In this document: positions 2,682 through 53,473 of the stretch, piece by piece
Numbering within the stretch: position 1 is the first letter of the stretch
Layout: the number at the start of each line of letters is the position of its first letter
Virus record (IMG/VR): IMGVR_UViG_2923967841_000001
Reading direction: 5' to 3' (one strand)
From: a virus
DNA: 64,000 nucleotides
The notes under the pieces: model-generated
The model's database searches: none
Told to the model about the DNA's origin: nothing
The model's input: the letters and a program-made list of their open reading frames with translations, nothing else
Made by a program: the position numbers and the translations under genes

Positions 2682-3767
2682 ATGATAAAAATATATGAAC
2701 CAAAAATCACAAATGAAGATATTTCCTTTGTGACAGAAACATTAAAAAAAGGATGGCTGTCTGGTAATACTCCTGTGATTAAAGATTTTGAAGAAGCCTT
2801 AGCAAATTATTTAGGAATAAAGTATGTGAGTTCTTGCTCAAGCGGTACTGCTGCATTACACCTGTCACTCCTGGGACTTGGTATTGGACCAGGTGATGAA
2901 GTTATTATGCCTAGTTTAAGCTATATAGCTACAGCTAATGCTGTTAGCTATGTTGGCGCAACTCCTGTCTTTATCGATGTAGATATTTCAACATGGCAAA
3001 TAGATCATCGACTAGTTGAGAAAAAAATTACTAAAAATACAAAAGCAATAATGCCAGTTCATCTTTATGGAGGAGTTCCGGATTTAAAATCTATTCAAAA
3101 AATTGCAAAAAAATATAAAGTAAAAATTATACATGACTCTGCTGAAGCGCTTGGATCAAAATATAATAATCAAAATTCAACTAACTTTAATGATGTTTCA
3201 ATACTTAGTTTTTTTCCAAATAAAGTGATAACAACTGGAGAAGGTGGTGCGGTTTGCACAAACAATAAAAAATTATATGACTCAATAGAAAAATTTAAAA
3301 GCCATAGCCTTAAAGGAAGTGTGGAGTATCTCCATTCAGATATAGGATATAACTATCGAATGTCATCCATGTCAGCTTCGATAGGCTTCCCACAAATAAA
3401 GAGAATAGATGACTACGTTTCTAAGAAAAAATTGCTATATGAAGAATACAAAACTGAGCTAGAACCTATTGGTTTTGAATTTCAAAACTTTGATTCCGCA
3501 TCAGAGTCCTCATATTGGCTGATTGCAACAAAAGTTCCTAAAAATATATCGAGAAATAAATTAAAAAAATATTTATTTAATAATCAAGTAGAAACAAGAA
3601 ATGTTTTTATTCCATTACACCTTCAGCCTCCTTATAAGCATCTTCTAAATAATGATTCTTTTGAAAACTCTATTGAAATATCAAATAGGGGGATTTGCCT
3701 GCCTTCAAGTCCAGGTTTAAATAAAAAAGATTTTAACTTTGTTGTAAATACTATAAAAAATTTCTAA
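2682..3767 (+). CDS. DegT/DnrJ/EryC1/StrS PLP-dependent sugar aminotransferase (GDP-perosamine synthase-like)
   Basis: SSGTAALHL, GPGDEVI, VHLYGG, HDSAEALGS, SFFPNKVITTGEGG (catalytic Lys), GYNYRMS. Confidence 0.9.
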   Translation: MIKIYEPKITNEDISFVTETLKKGWLSGNTPVIKDFEEALANYLGIKYVSSCSSGTAALHLSLLGLGIGPGDEVIMPSLSYIATANAVSYVGATPVFIDVDISTWQIDHRLVEKKITKNTKAIMPVHLYGGVPDLKSIQKIAKKYKVKIIHDSAEALGSKYNNQNSTNFNDVSILSFFPNKVITTGEGGAVCTNNKKLYDSIEKFKSHSLKGSVEYLHSDIGYNYRMSSMSASIGFPQIKRIDDYVSKKKLLYEEYKTELEPIGFEFQNFDSASESSYWLIATKVPKNISRNKLKKYLFNNQVETRNVFIPLHLQPPYKHLLNNDSFENSIEISNRGICLPSSPGLNKKDFNFVVNTIKNF

Positions 3768-3804
3768 ATTAAGATTATTTAATCATTATATTTATATTGT
3801 AAAA

Positions 3805-3878
3805 GGGCGCTTAGCTCAGTCTGGCAGAGCGCTTCCCTTACAAGGAAGAAGTCACAGGTTCAAATCCTGTAGCGCCCA
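3805..3878 (+). tRNA. trnV: tRNA-Val(TAC)
   Basis: Cloverleaf: GGGCGCT acceptor pairs with AGCGCCC; anticodon arm CTTCC-CTTACAA-GGAAG; T-loop GTTCAAATC. CCA not encoded. Confidence 0.97.
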
Positions 3879-3918
3879 CAAGAGTTTTTCAGAAATACAG
3901 TAAGAAAAAACCTGTTCG

Positions 3919-3937
3919 CACCCACAAAACACCCACA
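3919..3937 (+). repeat. 19-bp direct repeat CACCCACAAAACACCCACA, copy 1 (putative integrase arm site)
   Basis: Identical to 4837-4855; two CACCCACA units with an 11-bp period. Confidence 0.85.
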
Positions 3938-4016
3938 TTTTGTCTGATTTTAATTTATATTTATAAATTTCAATTTTGTTTAAGTAATATACTCAAATTG
4001 AAAGTCTTGATTAAAT

Positions 4017-4766
4017 ATGAAAAATAAAACTTTAATAAAAATAATTATTATTGGATTATCAACTTTCATTTTTCTAACAGGTTTCAACTTATATAATCAA
4101 AATGCTGAGAGAGAAGCTAATTTTGCTGAAACAGGATACTTAGAGACTAATTCTGAGCGTTCTGCTAGGGAACAAACAGAATATGAGGCTAAAGTAAAGG
4201 TAGAAATTTGTATTGAGGAAAACAATATAGCTCTTGAGCCTATTGTTTTGGTTTATAATAATATCGTTGAGAGAAATAATAAATTTGTTGCCTATTATGA
4301 TTTTTTATTTAGACATCAGACAAATCCCCAAAATAATACACCTCAATTGGATAAATTAGTTCGTGACATTGAAAATACTTTTCCCACAGGAGAATATTAC
4401 TTACCTAACCCACGTTTATCGCCAGTGAAATACACTTACAAAGGTAAACCTTTAAAGTCAACTTGGATAAGTAGACTCTACGAACCTTTATTTGATACTG
4501 ATGATTATTATGAGTTGGGCATAACCAGCAGTGATTTATATATATTTTACTATTGGCGTATTCAAGATTTATCTGAAGCACTAGACGAATCTGTGCATGG
4601 ATGGAAAGTTTGGGCACTAGGCTTTGATGATTATTCAAGACAATGGGGAGAATATTTCAAAATTGCTTTGAGAACTAGAAATAGTAACAAGATTTATTAT
4701 GAACAAGCATTGGCTAACTATTTATCATTACCAAGTGTAGATTCTTGGTGTGACTCCTATTTTTGA
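4017..4766 (+). CDS. Hypothetical membrane-anchored or exported protein (cassette cargo)
   Basis: 249-aa ORF with an N-terminal K-rich then hydrophobic segment (TLIKIIIIGLSTFIFLTGF); no family recognised. Confidence 0.7.
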   Translation: MKNKTLIKIIIIGLSTFIFLTGFNLYNQNAEREANFAETGYLETNSERSAREQTEYEAKVKVEICIEENNIALEPIVLVYNNIVERNNKFVAYYDFLFRHQTNPQNNTPQLDKLVRDIENTFPTGEYYLPNPRLSPVKYTYKGKPLKSTWISRLYEPLFDTDDYYELGITSSDLYIFYYWRIQDLSEALDESVHGWKVWALGFDDYSRQWGEYFKIALRTRNSNKIYYEQALANYLSLPSVDSWCDSYF

Positions 4767-4836
4767 ATAAGTTAAACAAATAAAAATAGTGTTGGAACAG
4801 TAATTAATTTCTCTAAACGAAATAAGTAACTAATCA

Positions 4837-4855
4837 CACCCACAAAACACCCACA
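4837..4855 (+). repeat. 19-bp direct repeat CACCCACAAAACACCCACA, copy 2 (putative integrase arm site)
   Basis: Identical to 3919-3937. Confidence 0.85.
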
Positions 4856-4873
4856 AATTTTCTAAAACTGTAG

Positions 4874-4959
4874 ATACTCTCTGATAACCTCTGATATCTT
4901 TTTGAGAGAGCTTAAGTTCATTAACCCTATAAATTGATACGCTCTAATACTCTCTAGTA
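4874..4959 (+). repeat. Two pairs of 10-bp tandem repeats, consensus ATAC(T/G)CTCT(G/A)
   Basis: ATACTCTCTG-ATAACCTCTG at 4874-4893 and ATACGCTCTA-ATACTCTCTA at 4937-4956, between the arm repeat and the att core. Confidence 0.6.
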
Positions 4960-4973
4960 TTAATTGGTTCTTT

Positions 4974-5019
4974 CCTTACAAGGAAGAAGTCACAGGTTCA
5001 AATCCTGTAGCGCCCACAA
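4974..5019 (+). repeat. tRNA-Val 3' fragment (att-site duplication)
   Basis: CCTTACAAGG...GCGCCCACAA, 46/46 identical to 3836-3881; starts in the anticodon arm. Confidence 0.95.
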
Positions 5020-5097
5020 AAAATTTTAAAAATATCTCAATTTAATTCGAATCATTAAATATTATTATCTATGTACAAAATATATCAGTGAAAATAG

Positions 5098-6264
5098 TTA
5101 ACTACAAATTTCAATTAATTTCTCACTATTAATAAGTCTGTAATATTCCGCAGGCCTCACGAGAATGCCCTCTGTTGGGTTTTCTAAACAAGATAGGGTA
5201 TTTTGATCATAGCTTTTGCCCCAATCAATTGTTGAATTTATTTCTAAATTTAAAAACATATTTGTTAATAACAAAAAAGAAAGTACATAAGCAAATAAGG
5301 ATTTATATTTAAATTCTTTATAATTTTCAAAAATTATTATATTGCTTAATAAAAATGGCGGTAGTAAGGGAATTAAAACTCTTCTTATGGGAAAGGGCTG
5401 ACTAAAAATTATTGGCAATATAAAAAAAGAAAGTAACGTCAAGATAGAAATTAAATAAAGATTCTTTGCTTCAAGGGTTGTCGAAAATACTAAAGTGAAA
5501 GTTGTTAAAAAAAGTAAATAAACAGGAATAAGAAATAAAACACTTTCTAAATGAAAAAGTTCTACAAAACCAAAGACAGATTTTAATAACCCTAAGATTG
5601 AAGTACCTTCAGCGCCATATAAATGCCCGGGTCTGGCAATCAGAAATGTCCAAATTACAATATAAAAACTAAAAAACAATGAAATAAAAACTGAACATAC
5701 AAAAATATTTAAATTCCTTTTAATTTCAACCCTAAGATTTACCAAGATAAAGAAAATAGAAAAAATTATATAAATATGTATAGAAAGAGCTGAGGCAATA
5801 AAGCATAGGCAAGAAATTAAAAAATTGTATTTATAAGGTTTTATCACATAATAATTTATACAACCAAAAAATATTAAAAATGATGACAAACCGTAACCCC
5901 TTGCTAATGTAAAGTATTCAATTAAGTAGATAGGCGACGTTAGTACCAGAGTCATATAAATTTTATAATTACTATCTTTAACTAAATATCCTATGGTTAT
6001 TAAATAAGCTATTCCTGATAATACATTTGGTAATCGTAAAAAAAATTCGGAATTTCCAAATAAAGTCGTAATCGAAATTAAAAAAGTGTTTAAAACGTGA
6101 TTATTTGCTACTCCAATATTGAATATATCATTTGTATATACATATTCTAAATATGTATATGCCTCATCTGTTGTGATTGGGTTAACACTAGCTTTATATA
6201 CAATGTGTGAAATCATAAATAATAAATATGATCTACAAAATAATGTAGTAAGTTTATAATTCAT
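5098..6264 (-). CDS. GT-C fold integral membrane glycosyltransferase (ArnT/PMT-like)
   Basis: TTDEAYTY acidic motif after TM1, NNHVLNT, RLPNVL, ARGYGL; about 10 hydrophobic segments. Confidence 0.7.
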   Translation of the reverse strand: MNYKLTTLFCRSYLLFMISHIVYKASVNPITTDEAYTYLEYVYTNDIFNIGVANNHVLNTFLISITTLFGNSEFFLRLPNVLSGIAYLITIGYLVKDSNYKIYMTLVLTSPIYLIEYFTLARGYGLSSFLIFFGCINYYVIKPYKYNFLISCLCFIASALSIHIYIIFSIFFILVNLRVEIKRNLNIFVCSVFISLFFSFYIVIWTFLIARPGHLYGAEGTSILGLLKSVFGFVELFHLESVLFLIPVYLLFLTTFTLVFSTTLEAKNLYLISILTLLSFFILPIIFSQPFPIRRVLIPLLPPFLLSNIIIFENYKEFKYKSLFAYVLSFLLLTNMFLNLEINSTIDWGKSYDQNTLSCLENPTEGILVRPAEYYRLINSEKLIEICS

Positions 6265-6306
6265 CTATAAAATTATTTTATATAAAAATTAAATGAACTT
6301 ATTAAA

Positions 6307-49475: not shown

Positions 49476-49519
49476 GTGGCTAGAGGCAGAATCGAATTAC
49501 TGACCCCTTGTTTTACAGA
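49476..49519 (-). repeat. Degenerate tRNA-Phe 3' fragment (att scar 3)
   Basis: 39/44 identical to 53400-53443. Confidence 0.9.
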
Positions 49520-49547
49520 TATGGGCTAACTATTTGGTATAAGTTGA

Positions 49548-50300
49548 TTATAACTTATAAATAATAAGTTGACCTAAATGATTTGGAATAACAACTAATT
49601 GTTTGTTTTGCTTTAATTCATTTCCAAATTTAGTAATTCCGTCTGTAAACCAACCTCCATAATCATCTAATATTATCATTGCTCCGTTAATTGAATTATT
49701 AAGTAAAAAATCAAGGCTTTCTTTAGCTGAAACGTATGTATCAACATCAATATGAGCAAATGAGATTGGTTTGTTAATAACAACATTGTTAATGCTGTTA
49801 GGAAATATACCCTCTACAATATTGAATTTTTGACCAGTTTTATTTTCAACTTCTCGAACATCATTAGGGGTTGCATCTTTATATTCAGAATTTTTAAAAA
49901 AAGTATCTTCTTCTGATGACCCAACTACTCCGCTAAAAGTATCACAAACAAAATAATCTATATTCTTATCTTTGTTTGCTAATGAAACTAGACCAGAAAC
50001 ACCACCTTTCCAAGATCCTACTTCAATAAATGATGAATTATCAACAAGGTATCTTTTCGACATTTCAAATATGGTAAATAGTCTTGATTTAGGATTTAAA
50101 GTATAGTTTTTAATTATTTCATAGTTCTCAGTAAATTGCTCATCTGTTTTCCAGGGTAAATAAAAATATTCGAAAATTTCAATACCGTAATCTTTTCGCT
50201 CTTCTTTATATCTAAGATTTATCTGAAACAATTTAAATAAAAATTTAGTAATTAAATCTAATTTTTTCCGTGCTTTAATGACTTTTTTAAGATTAAACAT
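49548..50300 (-). CDS. TylF/MycF/NovP-family sugar O-methyltransferase
   Basis: FIEVGSWKGG, CDTFSG, GIFPNS, SFAHIDVDTY, ILDDYG. Confidence 0.8.
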   Translation of the reverse strand: MFNLKKVIKARKKLDLITKFLFKLFQINLRYKEERKDYGIEIFEYFYLPWKTDEQFTENYEIIKNYTLNPKSRLFTIFEMSKRYLVDNSSFIEVGSWKGGVSGLVSLANKDKNIDYFVCDTFSGVVGSSEEDTFFKNSEYKDATPNDVREVENKTGQKFNIVEGIFPNSINNVVINKPISFAHIDVDTYVSAKESLDFLLNNSINGAMIILDDYGGWFTDGITKFGNELKQNKQLVVIPNHLGQLIIYKL

Positions 50301-50342
50301 TTGTGGCCAGAGGCAGAATCGAACTGCCGACCCCTTGTTTTT
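50301..50342 (-). repeat. tRNA-Phe 3' fragment (att scar 2)
   Basis: 42/42 identical to 53398-53439. Confidence 0.95.
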
Positions 50343-50484
50343 TAAATAAAGGACAACCTTGTGACCTTTAGTAATTGTAACTTATTCCTAGTTAATTATC
50401 ACTCATTTGTGAGAGGCTTTAAAAAGTTTATGGAGTTTCTGGACTTGCTAAAGAGTTTTGTATTGCGAGATTAGTTTTGACATT

Positions 50485-51189
50485 TTAAATTCTTTTTTTC
50501 ACTGCTTTTTGCAATAAAAATATAACTGCTTCAAGAATAATTTTGTAGTTCATTTTAGAGGTTCCATAAAATCTATCTTGAAAAATAATCGGCACTTCTT
50601 TAATTTTGTAATTATTTTCTTCTATAAAATTTGTTATTTCTACTAGAAAAGCATACCCGTTTAATTTTGGGTTATAGTTTATTATTTCATCAACTACTTT
50701 TTTATTCAACAATCTAAAACCACTTGTTTGATCTTTAATTTCAGATTTAAAAACTAACCCACAAAGCTTGTTCGCATATTTTGATAAATACTGCCTTCTT
50801 TTAGGCCAACCACTTGTGCCGCCACTAGGAACATACCTACTTCCAATTACTAAATCATAATTATTTTTTTCATTGATCAATTTTGTCAAATCTTCGAATC
50901 TATGAGAAAAATCAGTATCCATTTGTACAAAATGATAATAATTATTTTTAATACCCCACTTATAACCTTCAATTATCGCTGATCCATAACCAAGCTTTCC
51001 AGATCTTTTTAGAATTTTAACCGAATCGCGACTTTGCATATTTTTTTCAACAATTGTTGCTGTACCATCAGGTGAATTGTCATCGACAATTAACAGATGA
51101 ATCTCTTTAAAGCTATCTGTAGACTCTATAAATTTTTGGATATTTTCTGATTCGTTATAAGTAGGGGTAATTAATAAAATTTTTTCCAT
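50485..51189 (-). CDS. Polyprenol-monophosphomannose synthase-like GT2 (Ppm1/DPM1/GtrB-like)
   Basis: PTYNESENI, VDDNSPDGT, KLGYGSA, QMDTDFSH, GSRYVPSG, DQTSGFR, EVPIIFQDR. Confidence 0.88.
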   Translation of the reverse strand: MEKILLITPTYNESENIQKFIESTDSFKEIHLLIVDDNSPDGTATIVEKNMQSRDSVKILKRSGKLGYGSAIIEGYKWGIKNNYYHFVQMDTDFSHRFEDLTKLINEKNNYDLVIGSRYVPSGGTSGWPKRRQYLSKYANKLCGLVFKSEIKDQTSGFRLLNKKVVDEIINYNPKLNGYAFLVEITNFIEENNYKIKEVPIIFQDRFYGTSKMNYKIILEAVIFLLQKAVKKRI

Positions 51190-51193
51190 TCTA

Positions 51194-52369
51194 TTAACCC
51201 AACGCAGATTGTAATGTTAATTGGATACTTTTTAGGACTCTATAATAATTTGAAGAAACTGTAGTTCCTCTCATTTCCAAACAACATTCTGGCATAATTG
51301 TCAACAACGAGACCAAGATAAATGCTCCTATTGCTAAAGACCAAGTTTTATTATTGTTTATTTTGTTACTTAAAATTAAGAAACTAAAAAAACATAAATG
51401 AAATAAAGAAAAAATCCACCTTCCCCAATCAAAACCAACAATAAATAAAATTGGAATTACTATAAAGTATTTTTCCTTTAATAAAAAATCTTTTACTGTA
51501 ATAAAACTAAGGTTCAGTTTGTTTAGTTCAATTTTAAATATTGCTATAAAAGTCCATATAAATATTGCAAAATAAAATGACCACAAAAACATAGACCCTG
51601 AAAAAATTAAGACTTGTGTAGTTTTAAAAAAAGAGTCGAATAAAGACCAGCCTATTGCAGTTATAGCATTCGGTTCTATACTTATTTGGCTTCTATCAAA
51701 TTCACTAAGACTACTCCATATTATATTTGATGCAGCATCATTTCCTGCACTTAAAATTACGCCTGTAAAAGCCAGCAGAATAATTGCTGAATAAGTTTTT
51801 ATATAATATTTAGAAAAAGAAGTTTTTTTCTTAAGAATTAAAACGATAAACGCTATTGTAATCATAGCAATTCCCTCATGAATTAGGATCATCAAAATAG
51901 AGAGTGTCACAGTAGTAATAAAAGTTATATTGGTTTTTATGTTAATTTTGATAATTAACAATGTAATCATAAATAAATTCAGCACAAACATTTCTTTTCT
52001 GTGGTAGTACTGATTGAACATGGTTATGTTAAATATTCCAAAGATACTTATTAAGTAAAGCAAATGTTGTAAAGGAGTTAATTTGGAAATTTTTATATGT
52101 GCATAAGAAAGCAGAGTAAAAATAATAAAATTTATGAACAGAAAAATATTTACAGTGTCAAACAAAATTAAATCAGAATCTATTAAAGTAATTAATTCTC
52201 CTAAAAAACCTCTTCGTGTAAAAAGCCCTGGGTAGGAAATTATTAGTTCTGAATAAGACCAAGGCGAGTATTCTAAAGTATCTGATAATATTGTTTTTTT
52301 TGCAACCTGTGCAATCGAAAAAAAATACAATAACAAGTTTATAAGATTAGTTGTTTTCTTTAATTTCAT
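51194..52369 (-). CDS. Polytopic membrane protein, possible GT-C acceptor-side transferase
   Basis: About 10 TM segments; FTRRGFLGE, RKE, IHEG, FDWGRW; ends 4 bp before the polyprenol-P-sugar synthase. Confidence 0.5.
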   Translation of the reverse strand: MKLKKTTNLINLLLYFFSIAQVAKKTILSDTLEYSPWSYSELIISYPGLFTRRGFLGELITLIDSDLILFDTVNIFLFINFIIFTLLSYAHIKISKLTPLQHLLYLISIFGIFNITMFNQYYHRKEMFVLNLFMITLLIIKINIKTNITFITTVTLSILMILIHEGIAMITIAFIVLILKKKTSFSKYYIKTYSAIILLAFTGVILSAGNDAASNIIWSSLSEFDRSQISIEPNAITAIGWSLFDSFFKTTQVLIFSGSMFLWSFYFAIFIWTFIAIFKIELNKLNLSFITVKDFLLKEKYFIVIPILFIVGFDWGRWIFSLFHLCFFSFLILSNKINNNKTWSLAIGAFILVSLLTIMPECCLEMRGTTVSSNYYRVLKSIQLTLQSALG

Positions 52370-52419
52370 ATTGATTAGTCTAGTTCAGCTTTTGGGTTTT
52401 TATTTTGATAAACCATAGC

Positions 52420-52469
52420 TTGTGGCCAGAGGCAGAATCGAACTGCCGACCCCTTGTTTTTCAGACAAG
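52420..52469 (-). repeat. tRNA-Phe 3' fragment (att scar 1)
   Basis: 50/50 identical to 53398-53447. Confidence 0.97.
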
Positions 52470-52585
52470 GGCAAACCTTATGACCTTGTATCAGTTTAGG
52501 TTATTCTATTTGATTTTACGCTCGTTATAGACAGGCTCTCAATGATAGCTCGTATAGAACGAAACACTATTCAATAGTGAGCGTG

Positions 52586-53347
52586 TTAAAGTTTTTTTAA
52601 TACAACCGAGTAATGATGATATAAAATTTCATAAGTCCCTTTATTTTCTTCAAGGTAATCAAGAACGTATCTACCATTTCCGGGTATAAAATCTAAGTTA
52701 TTTTTTTCATTAGTTCCCCACAACTCAAAGTTATTTGGAGTGTCGTCAATAGCAACAATTGTTCCTTTTTTAACATGTGCATCAACCAATAAGAATTCTT
52801 TTAGTACATGATTCTGGGCTGAGTGGGGAAACTTTAAATCAATTGGAACACTATCTAAAAATACAATATCTAATTTACTTAAATAACTTGGTTCTAGTTT
52901 TTCAATGTAATCTACTGAATCATAAGTATGAAACTTTACATTTTTATTCTCAATAAATTCATAAAAAGATTTTATATCTGGGTTTATGTCGACTGTATTA
53001 AACGAACCACCAAATTTAATAACATAACCTGCAAACAGCATTGAACTTTTTGAACCATGAGCAGCACTACCAGTTTCTAGAATATTAAGGCTTTTACCCG
53101 AAAAGTGATTTAAAACTAAAGTAAACATATCTCTATTAATATGAGACAACACACTATATGTGTCAAAATGAAAATAAATTAATTCTTCTATAGATTTAAC
53201 TTTTTTTATATTTTCAATTAAGAATTGATTTGTATTAATTTTTTTTAATTTTCTTTTATTGAAATAAGTATTTTTTTTAATTAAACAAAATTTAATAATA
53301 ATTTTTAACTGTGTTTTGATTTTCAATGGAATTAATTTTTTAATCAT
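52586..53347 (-). CDS. Class I SAM-dependent methyltransferase-like protein
   Basis: ILETGSA, TVDIN, DSVDYI, VFLDS, EFL, VAIDDT. Confidence 0.65.
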   Translation of the reverse strand: MIKKLIPLKIKTQLKIIIKFCLIKKNTYFNKRKLKKINTNQFLIENIKKVKSIEELIYFHFDTYSVLSHINRDMFTLVLNHFSGKSLNILETGSAAHGSKSSMLFAGYVIKFGGSFNTVDINPDIKSFYEFIENKNVKFHTYDSVDYIEKLEPSYLSKLDIVFLDSVPIDLKFPHSAQNHVLKEFLLVDAHVKKGTIVAIDDTPNNFELWGTNEKNNLDFIPGNGRYVLDYLEENKGTYEILYHHYSVVLKKL

Positions 53348-53400
53348 CGTTTAAATTTTAGTCTTCAAAATAGCTTTATCTATTTGATAAAAATTAATTG

Positions 53401-53473
53401 TGGCCAGAGGCAGAATCGAACTGCCGACCCCTTGTTTTTCAGACAAGTGCTCTACCGACTGAGCTATCTGGCC
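53401..53473 (-). tRNA. trnF: tRNA-Phe(GAA)
   Basis: Reverse complement GGCCAGA...TCTGGCCA; anticodon arm CTTGT-CTGAAAA-ACAAG; T-loop GTTCGATTC. Confidence 0.97.

Follow-up and report, generated by a model that had tools for sequence, protein, structure and literature searches.

A single-gene cassette at an Actinomarina tRNA-Val gene has the attachment-site anatomy of integrase-bearing, phage-satellite-like elements

We analysed a 64-kb window (64,000 nucleotides; IMG/VR record IMGVR_UViG_2923967841_000001), whose source is the Candidatus Actinomarina single-cell genome GCA_902595365.1, and in particular the segment that follows its tRNA-Val gene. The segment at 3882–5019 is probably a non-autonomous integrative cassette in tRNA-Val, consisting of an attP site that was split by integration and one cargo gene, and would be mobilised in trans. 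It belongs to a family of cassettes that shares its core and arm geometry with phage-satellite-like elements of 5.5–7.4 kb that encode their own integrases. From these comparisons we infer that a protein binds the arms, that the cassette is mobilised in trans, and that this copy could still be active.

Results

The features of the cassette are collected in Table 1. A first-pass annotation of the window, made from its letters, had described a perfect 46-bp duplication of the tRNA 3′ half and an identical 19-bp repeat, made of two units 11 bp apart and lying in direct orientation inside each end. Both descriptions hold exactly: the left arm follows its core copy by 37 bp, and the right arm precedes its own by 118 bp. 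The 46-bp core spans the last base pair of the anticodon stem to the tRNA 3′ end plus 2 nt. It lies inside the tRNA gene, with the anticodon TAC at 3839–3841 included in the identity of 3836–3881. The base preceding the two core copies differs (C at 3835 vs T at 4973), and the copies diverge after CCCACAA. The 19-bp repeat, CACCCACAAAACACCCACA, occurs exactly twice in the window, both times on the + strand, against 0 expected from 100 shuffles. Rejoining the two ends gives 19 + 118 + 46 + 37 + 19 = 239 bp of arm, core and arm, in agreement with the ~240 bp that had been proposed. Between the arms there is a single long open reading frame (ORF), P0001; a nested ORF of 77 aa lies on the other strand. 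No integrase was found in the window when 24 members of the relevant family served as tblastn queries; the segment is a single-gene cassette of ~1.1 kb, as first described. No cassette-type left end follows the right core copy at 4974–5019. The conserved P arm gave no Rfam family and no significant fold (z = −1.0). The P arm and core together (4921–5009) gave a weak, sub-threshold tRNA match of 23.4 bits at model positions 7–64, and the sequence upstream of the partial core copy faintly resembles a tRNA 5′ half.

Table 1. Coordinates of the tRNA-Val cassette in the 64-kb window
Feature	Position	Strand	Basis
tRNA-Val(tac), attB-bearing gene	3805–3879	+	ARAGORN; Rfam RF00005, 73.8 bits
tRNA-Val 5′ part, B side of attL	3805–3835	+	position
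Left 46-bp core copy, identical to 4974–5019	3836–3881	+	exact repeat
P′ spacer: conserved left end GAGTTTTTCAGAAAT and 22 nt varying with arm class	3882–3918	+	cassette comparison
Left (P′) arm: two CACCCACA units, 11-bp period; putative arm-type integrase site	3919–3937	+	exact repeat
Cargo ORF P0001, 249 aa, N-terminal membrane helix	4017–4766	+	ORF call
Right (P) arm: same two CACCCACA units, direct orientation	4837–4855	+	exact repeat
P-arm backbone, 118 bp, with repeated CTCT(G/A)(A/G)TA motifs	4856–4973	+	cassette comparison
Right 46-bp core copy (attR)	4974–5019	+	exact repeat

The product of P0001 matched no Pfam, PHROG or PADLOC family, its Atlas features scored below 0.8, and it has no recombinase signature. 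The single homologue found is a 99% variant, and no similarity was seen between P0001 and the 249-aa cargo of locus L105. The AlphaFold 2 (AF2) model of P0001 had a predicted local distance difference test score (pLDDT) of 41 and was confident solely for a helix at residues 2–39.

The same anatomy recurs in other Actinomarina genomes. Of 64 Actinomarina species genomes, 52 had a 32-mer from the 3′ end of tRNA-Val, in many cases as 2–4 direct copies 0.28–6 kb apart. The cassettes bounded in this way measure 0.2–6 kb, and 20 such arrays were fetched for comparison of their cassettes. Nearly all cassettes open with GGGTTTTTCAGAAAT directly after the core (the window carries a variant), and ~22 nt past this left end nearly every cassette has a pair of 7–11-nt words with an 11-bp period. 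The word itself varies among cassettes and falls into ~16 classes; examples are CACCCACA, GACCCACA, ACCGCACA, ACCGAACA, CACGCACA, CACACACA, CCCCTACA, GACACC, GACGCCC and ACCCCACA. The left word pair lies 32–38 nt after the core in 31 cassettes (53 nt in the satellite), and the words of the right pair precede the next core by ~140 and ~129 nt (typical range, −142 to −126).

Agreement between the left and right words was assessed by seeking the left 7-mer of each cassette in the 60 nt ending 100 nt before the next core. Among the 31 cassettes with a recognisable left pair, the words matched within their own cassette in 27, compared with 6.2% of non-self pairs, and none of 10,000 permutations reached 27. 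The 118-bp right backbone is 81–89% identical among ‘type A’ cassettes bearing other arm words. In two homologous 329-aa cassettes (84% identical), the same G/A change is found in all four units (CACGCACA vs CACACACA). Such words, the same at all four places in one element but different from element to element on a conserved backbone, point towards a factor that reads them specifically.

The expectation that related genomes would hold different cargo between the same arms was confirmed, since CACCCACA arms bracket at least five other cargos, namely a 6-kb type I restriction-modification (R-M) system, an NgoPII R-M system and three unknown proteins. Nor is P0001 a gene fixed at this site without alternatives, as the annotation had also considered; other cargos, other positions and other neighbours were all found. 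Throughout the family the cargo is mostly anti-phage, comprising type I, II and III R-M, GmrSD, HNH and proteases, and the remainder consists of small secreted or membrane proteins of unknown function. No recombinase was found in the cassette cargo among the 25 commonest of the 40 Pfam families matched. Comparison of cargo with satellite genes by tblastn gave one weak link, between the cargo of L031 and a gene of L150 (30% identity).

The predicted arm-core-arm attP of ~240 bp is present in the joined-end form, circular or concatemeric, of integrase-bearing elements on the same tRNA-Val core. In one genome (G053), a 366-aa integrase lies directly beside tRNA-Val in a 5.9-kb, core-bounded element, together with genes for a helix-turn-helix (HTH) regulator, an excisionase (Xis)-like protein, a DUF3631 replication protein and a small terminase; this gene content is a phage-satellite set. 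The satellite-like relatives are 5.5–7.4 kb long and occur in circular or joined forms, and those at L092, L123, L124 and L139–L147 have an integrase, a regulator, a replication module and a packaging gene. Related integrases form 24 clusters in marine metagenomes and are 42–100% identical. In L144, the element is integrated at a full tRNA-Val and is followed by a small ACCGCACA cassette. Two contigs, L145 and L146, are 5,552-bp rotations of this same element, 99.5% identical to each other, in which the 46-bp core links the right end to the left end, and pairs of the word ACCCTTA lie at −137 and +38. The same joined geometry is found with TCCCCCCAAT arms in L124, with AAGACACAA arms in L147, and with CACACACA arms on both sides in L153. 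The arm-core-arm arrangement of these joined elements demonstrates that the attP predicted from the cassette is real in autonomous relatives.

Sequences of the ends also connect the two kinds of element. The cassette left end is found in satellites that encode the integrases P0021, P0022 and P0025, and a close variant of it accompanies P0024. Of these integrases, P0021 goes with CACACACA and P0022 with ACCGCACA arm words. Three arm classes are common to integrase-bearing and integrase-less elements. The ACCGCACA class is represented by L152, whose P′ arm, compared by eye, differs at one position in ~59 nt from the left end of cassette L102_1, the CACACACA class by the integrase-bearing L153 and cassettes L094_0 and L037_0, and the CCCCTACA class by satellite L123 and cassettes L094_1 and L108_0.

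Variants of this design were seen as well. In L139–L141 and L143, which encode the integrases P0012 and P0018, word pairs (CCCCCACAA; CCCCCTGAT) lie 241–244 bp apart after the integrase gene; these elements are without a tRNA-Val core and have the same attP design, probably at a different attachment site. L140 and L141, for which this is likewise probable, have 141-bp terminal overlaps, typical of circular contigs. L092 (the G053 element) and L001 represent a second satellite subtype, in which the encoded CCA end is restored (CCCACCA) and followed by ATGTTTGTAGGC, and the word pair lies 53–57 nt after the core instead of ~36.

Arm-site binding by the N-terminal domain is established for the integrases of lambda, L5 and Tn916. 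In the satellite integrases, divergence is greatest in the N-terminal 66 residues for nearly all of the 57 pairs compared, two example pairs being 61/80/91% and 47/75/78% identical over the N-terminal, core-binding and catalytic domains. The AlphaFold model (pLDDT 81) has an N-terminal part composed of a three-stranded sheet plus a helix. Full-length lambda Int aligned with the model over residues 2–354 (Z 18.6), and the best structural match was Tn1549 Int (Z 23.9), whose solved construct is without the arm-binding domain. Judged from this model, the satellite integrases are lambda/Tn916-type (heterobivalent) tyrosine integrases. Their N-terminal domain would then bind the paired words, as suggested by its fold, by its co-variation with the words, and by the lambda, L5 and Tn916 integrases.

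On this basis a pathway for the window cassette may be drawn. An integrase supplied in trans would bind the anticodon stem-loop region of the core through its core-binding and catalytic domains, while its N-terminal arm-binding domain would bind the two pairs of CACCCACA words. The resulting complex would assemble attL with attR for excision, or attP with tRNA-Val for integration. Because the arm words differ among classes and co-vary with integrase lineages, only a cognate integrase of the CACCCACA class is expected to move the cassette.

We also considered that the paired words might not be integrase arm sites at all, and might instead be boundary repeats of cargo capture, or sites for an excisionase, a host protein or a transcription signal. 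In favour of this, the words coincide exactly with the boundaries of the cargo, one remnant has a single word pair and no cargo, one metagenome contig weakly joins 3896 to 4841 (side 29), and the binding of the words is itself argued from analogy. In the joined-end satellites, however, both pairs are found at −140/+35 of the core with no cargo between the pairs and the core, and this layout is that of the arm-type sites of a lambda/L5-type attP. The arm-binding fold of the integrase N-terminal domain, which is also its most variable domain, and the lack of any RNA family or significant fold at the z-score given above, likewise make this explanation improbable.

Mobilisation by host XerC/XerD-type recombinases appears still more remote, to the point that we give it very little credence. 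PF00589 was matched in 61 of 64 Actinomarina genomes, nearly all of which have one or two Xer-like recombinases of ~290–300 aa; among tyrosine recombinases, this type alone occurs in nearly all Actinomarina genomes. The site used here, however, is a core running from the tRNA anticodon to the 3′ end with outer arm pairs, and not a dif-like site of 28 bp. Moreover, Xer proteins are without an arm-binding domain, and dedicated integrases with matching att sites exist.

The distribution of the window cassette was followed in metagenomes, where it was present in 12 contigs at 97.4–100% identity. It stands first after the full tRNA-Val with three upstream gene sets (those of the window, L006 and L001), and it stands inside arrays, after the right end of another cassette or a partial tRNA, in L003, L007 and L009. 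In L001, a satellite-type left end follows the cassette. Sister cassettes 99.1–99.6% identical are found across different GTDB species at different array positions; cassettes have recently spread between species. Mismatches in the core copies (1–3) occur mostly in distal copies and not in tRNA-proximal ones, and in L095_2, a distal cassette of one genome (G051), the cargo is gone and the CACCCACA left arm runs into a truncated P arm. The distal mismatches and this decayed distal cassette fit insertion beside the tRNA followed by decay further out. Cargo ORFs point away from the tRNA in 41 of 47 cases.

These copies bear on another explanation, namely that the segment is an inert remnant of a satellite or prophage after internal deletion, and was spread by homologous recombination through the core and the conserved ends after uptake of foreign DNA. 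Among the copies, the ORF has 0–5 differences and the P arm (4879–4973) has 13–25, and copies that agree fully in their cargo have mosaic P arms. The cassette ends are therefore subject to homologous recombination or gene conversion, which could shuffle cassettes without an integrase. The 81–89% conserved flanks offer ample homology for this, decayed cassettes exist (L095_2 and the distal cores with mismatches), integrases are very rare in genomes, and the prevailing orientation of the cargo ORFs is that of the rightward operon of the satellites, as expected of right-end accessory genes. In contrast, the arm words are invariant in 11 of the 12 metagenome contigs, that is, in all copies reaching the arms, while the adjoining P arm varies. 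Between homologous cassettes, a change in one unit is shared by all four, left and right words match in 27 of 31 cassettes across ~16 classes, and identical arms are carried by integrase-bearing elements in joined-end form. Invariance, concerted change and left/right matching of this kind would not be maintained by drift in an inert remnant, and we regard that explanation as unlikely. Origin of the cassette by internal deletion of a larger integrase-bearing satellite, on the other hand, is compatible with all the data and with later mobilisation in trans. In four marine metagenomes, the summed contig depth of the P-arm backbone was 100–400 times that of the cargo, a ratio to be read with caution.

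Mobilisation of the cassette in trans must also be weighed against several results that speak against it, in addition to the P-arm mosaicism just described and to the analogy and co-variation from which arm binding by the N-terminal domain is argued. The first-pass annotation had pointed to a recombinase encoded elsewhere with matching att repeats, and neither 65 genomes nor the contigs of 11 integrase clusters yielded an integrase with a CACCCACA att site (several further clusters, among them P0020, P0023 and P0026, lie outside these). A scan of 185,579 species genomes with the 19-mer returned solely integrase-less Actinomarina cassettes, at eleven loci in Candidatus Actinomarina single-cell genomes, plus unrelated taxa (Bacillus-type and others), in which the 19-mer was present as single copies. 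An integrase of this family was found in 1 of 65 Actinomarinales genomes. No circular junction was seen in Logan contigs, which break at the 46-bp repeat, so that its absence is uninformative, and no precise empty site was seen in these same contigs. Their weak single joints, 3896 to 4841 (side 29) and 3572 to 5302 (side 24), are not evidence. An empty attB with the window flanks was not found either, the downstream flank (5020–6300) giving noise in 64 genomes. In IMG/VR, the single match to a 31-mer of the core was an unrelated GC-rich contig without an integrase, and the integrase profile gave one distant match. The proposal of a non-autonomous, trans-mobilised cassette thus stands in its main line, which is carried by the anatomy, the family, the shared arms and the joined satellites, whereas the cognate integrase that it calls for was not found among the sequences searched.

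Discussion

Gene cassettes bounded by direct tRNA repeats have been published for flexible genomic island 1 (fGI1) of Actinomarinales, a hypervariable region (HVR) bounded by tRNAs (Lopez-Perez et al. 2020, PMC7771536). The locus studied here is fGI1. Its tRNAs (Val, Phe, Asp, Lys and Arg in the window) stand amid genes for glycosyltransferases and sugar-modifying enzymes, and it agrees with the published cassettes in organism group, in island (five fGI1 tRNAs among glycosyltransferase genes) and in the exact 46-bp repeat. Actinomarina, a streamlined marine bacterium, was reported to be without mobile elements apart from three insertion sequences (IS) and one prophage at tRNA-Val (PMC7771536), and a 2026 preprint, ‘Actinomarina, resolved’, notes that the mechanism of integration has yet to be identified (10.64898/2026.04.03.716425). 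The fGI1 papers describe no integrase, att anatomy, mechanism, paired arm words, classes or link to satellites. The cassettes themselves are therefore published, and what is new against the literature searched is the class-specific arm words, the identity of the attP with that of satellite-like circles, and the candidate integrases.

In its design the element resembles the attP sites of lambda, L5, Tn916 and Tn1549, with a tRNA core identical to attB and direct arm-type sites on both sides over ~240 bp. The arm pairs of the cassette at +37/−118 have the same geometry as those of its joined-end, integrase-bearing relatives. It differs from the lambda/L5-type systems in that the window element has neither integrase nor Xis and carries one cargo gene, and in its many classes of arm words, whose binding is putative and argued by analogy, on an otherwise conserved backbone.

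Cis-mobilisable elements (CIMEs) of Firmicutes ICE (integrative and conjugative element) families are att-flanked, integrase-less derivatives that accrete with ICEs. The present cassettes are alike in that attL and attR of an autonomous family flank a cassette without recombination genes, stacked at one tRNA-type site. They are unlike CIMEs in that the putative helpers are phage-satellite-like and not conjugative, the cassettes are much smaller (0.6–6 kb), and there are specificity classes of arm words. From an integron gene cassette, the marks of which are an imperfect attC palindrome, an IntI integrase and an attI/Pc platform, the element is distinguished by the direct tRNA repeats and direct arm words that bound it, by its lack of a significant hairpin, and by the absence of an adjacent integrase.

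The integrase-bearing relatives, with int, HTH, Xis-like, DUF3631 and TerS genes, fit the marine phage satellites called VEIMEs and the Prochlorococcus tycheposons, which are like phage-inducible chromosomal islands (PICIs). There, too, islands grow by stacked insertions split by partial tRNAs. The window cassette differs from PICI and VEIME phage satellites in having none of the satellite hallmark genes and a single gene of unknown function. About 20% of VEIMEs are without an integrase, and borrowed integrases were suggested for them (Eppley et al. 2022, PMC9618062); that text makes no mention of actinobacterial hosts. A reading of the window itself as Prochlorococcus/tycheposon DNA, based on its low GC, was dropped, since the 19-mer matches Actinomarina and tRNA-Val is not among the seven tycheposon sites (Hackl et al., 10.1101/2020.12.28.424599).

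A broader proposal may be offered tentatively, although we do not consider it probable. The paired arm words could form an addressing code, in which the N-terminal domains and the words have co-diversified into at least 16 orthogonal classes of integrase and att site on one tRNA-Val core, with the integrase-less cassettes acting as hyperparasites of the satellites. If this were true, any cassette in a stack could be excised or inserted by its own class of integrase with its neighbours undisturbed, and the cassettes, many with anti-phage systems, would join the satellites in building the hypervariable island of a bacterium that ranks among the smallest free-living ones. Should specificity reside in the arm words, nature would here provide a collection of orthogonal integrase/att pairs that share one core.

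The probable trans-mobilised cassette has consequences of its own. Its anatomy offers a testable answer to how the tRNA-bounded hypervariable island of Actinomarina is built. It points to heterobivalent integrases on small satellite-like circles, and to a far larger population of integrase-less cassettes that keep complete, class-specific docking sites. With cargos that include R-M and other defence genes as well as small secreted proteins, such cassettes bear on the ecology of phage satellites and on the circulation of defence genes in the surface ocean.

Additional observations

A second cassette array in the window lies at tRNA-Phe (53400–53473, − strand). Further copies of the tRNA 3′ half, each starting at the anticodon loop, are found at 52422–52451, 50303–50332 and 49476–49505 (4 mismatches), so that the array extends over 49476–53473 on the − strand; no CACCCACA-type paired words were seen in it. 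In two other Actinomarina genomes, an integrase fragment lies inside a tRNA-Phe array (L114, G021:C1:82000-95000), and a 339-aa integrase is found in a 5-kb element between two full copies of tRNA-Ile, with a tRNA-Leu in addition (L113, G012:C1:222000-236000). From these two loci it follows that other tRNAs of the island, too, have their own integrase-bearing elements.

Two genomes carry a solitary partial copy of the tRNA-Val core, with a cassette left end, in inverted orientation ~365 kb from the real tRNA-Val. The positions are G002:C1:25277 (−) vs 393085/395101 (+), and G023:C5:501906 (−) vs 865820 (+). A large inversion between core copies may account for these lone inverted cores, or they may mark a second conserved site.

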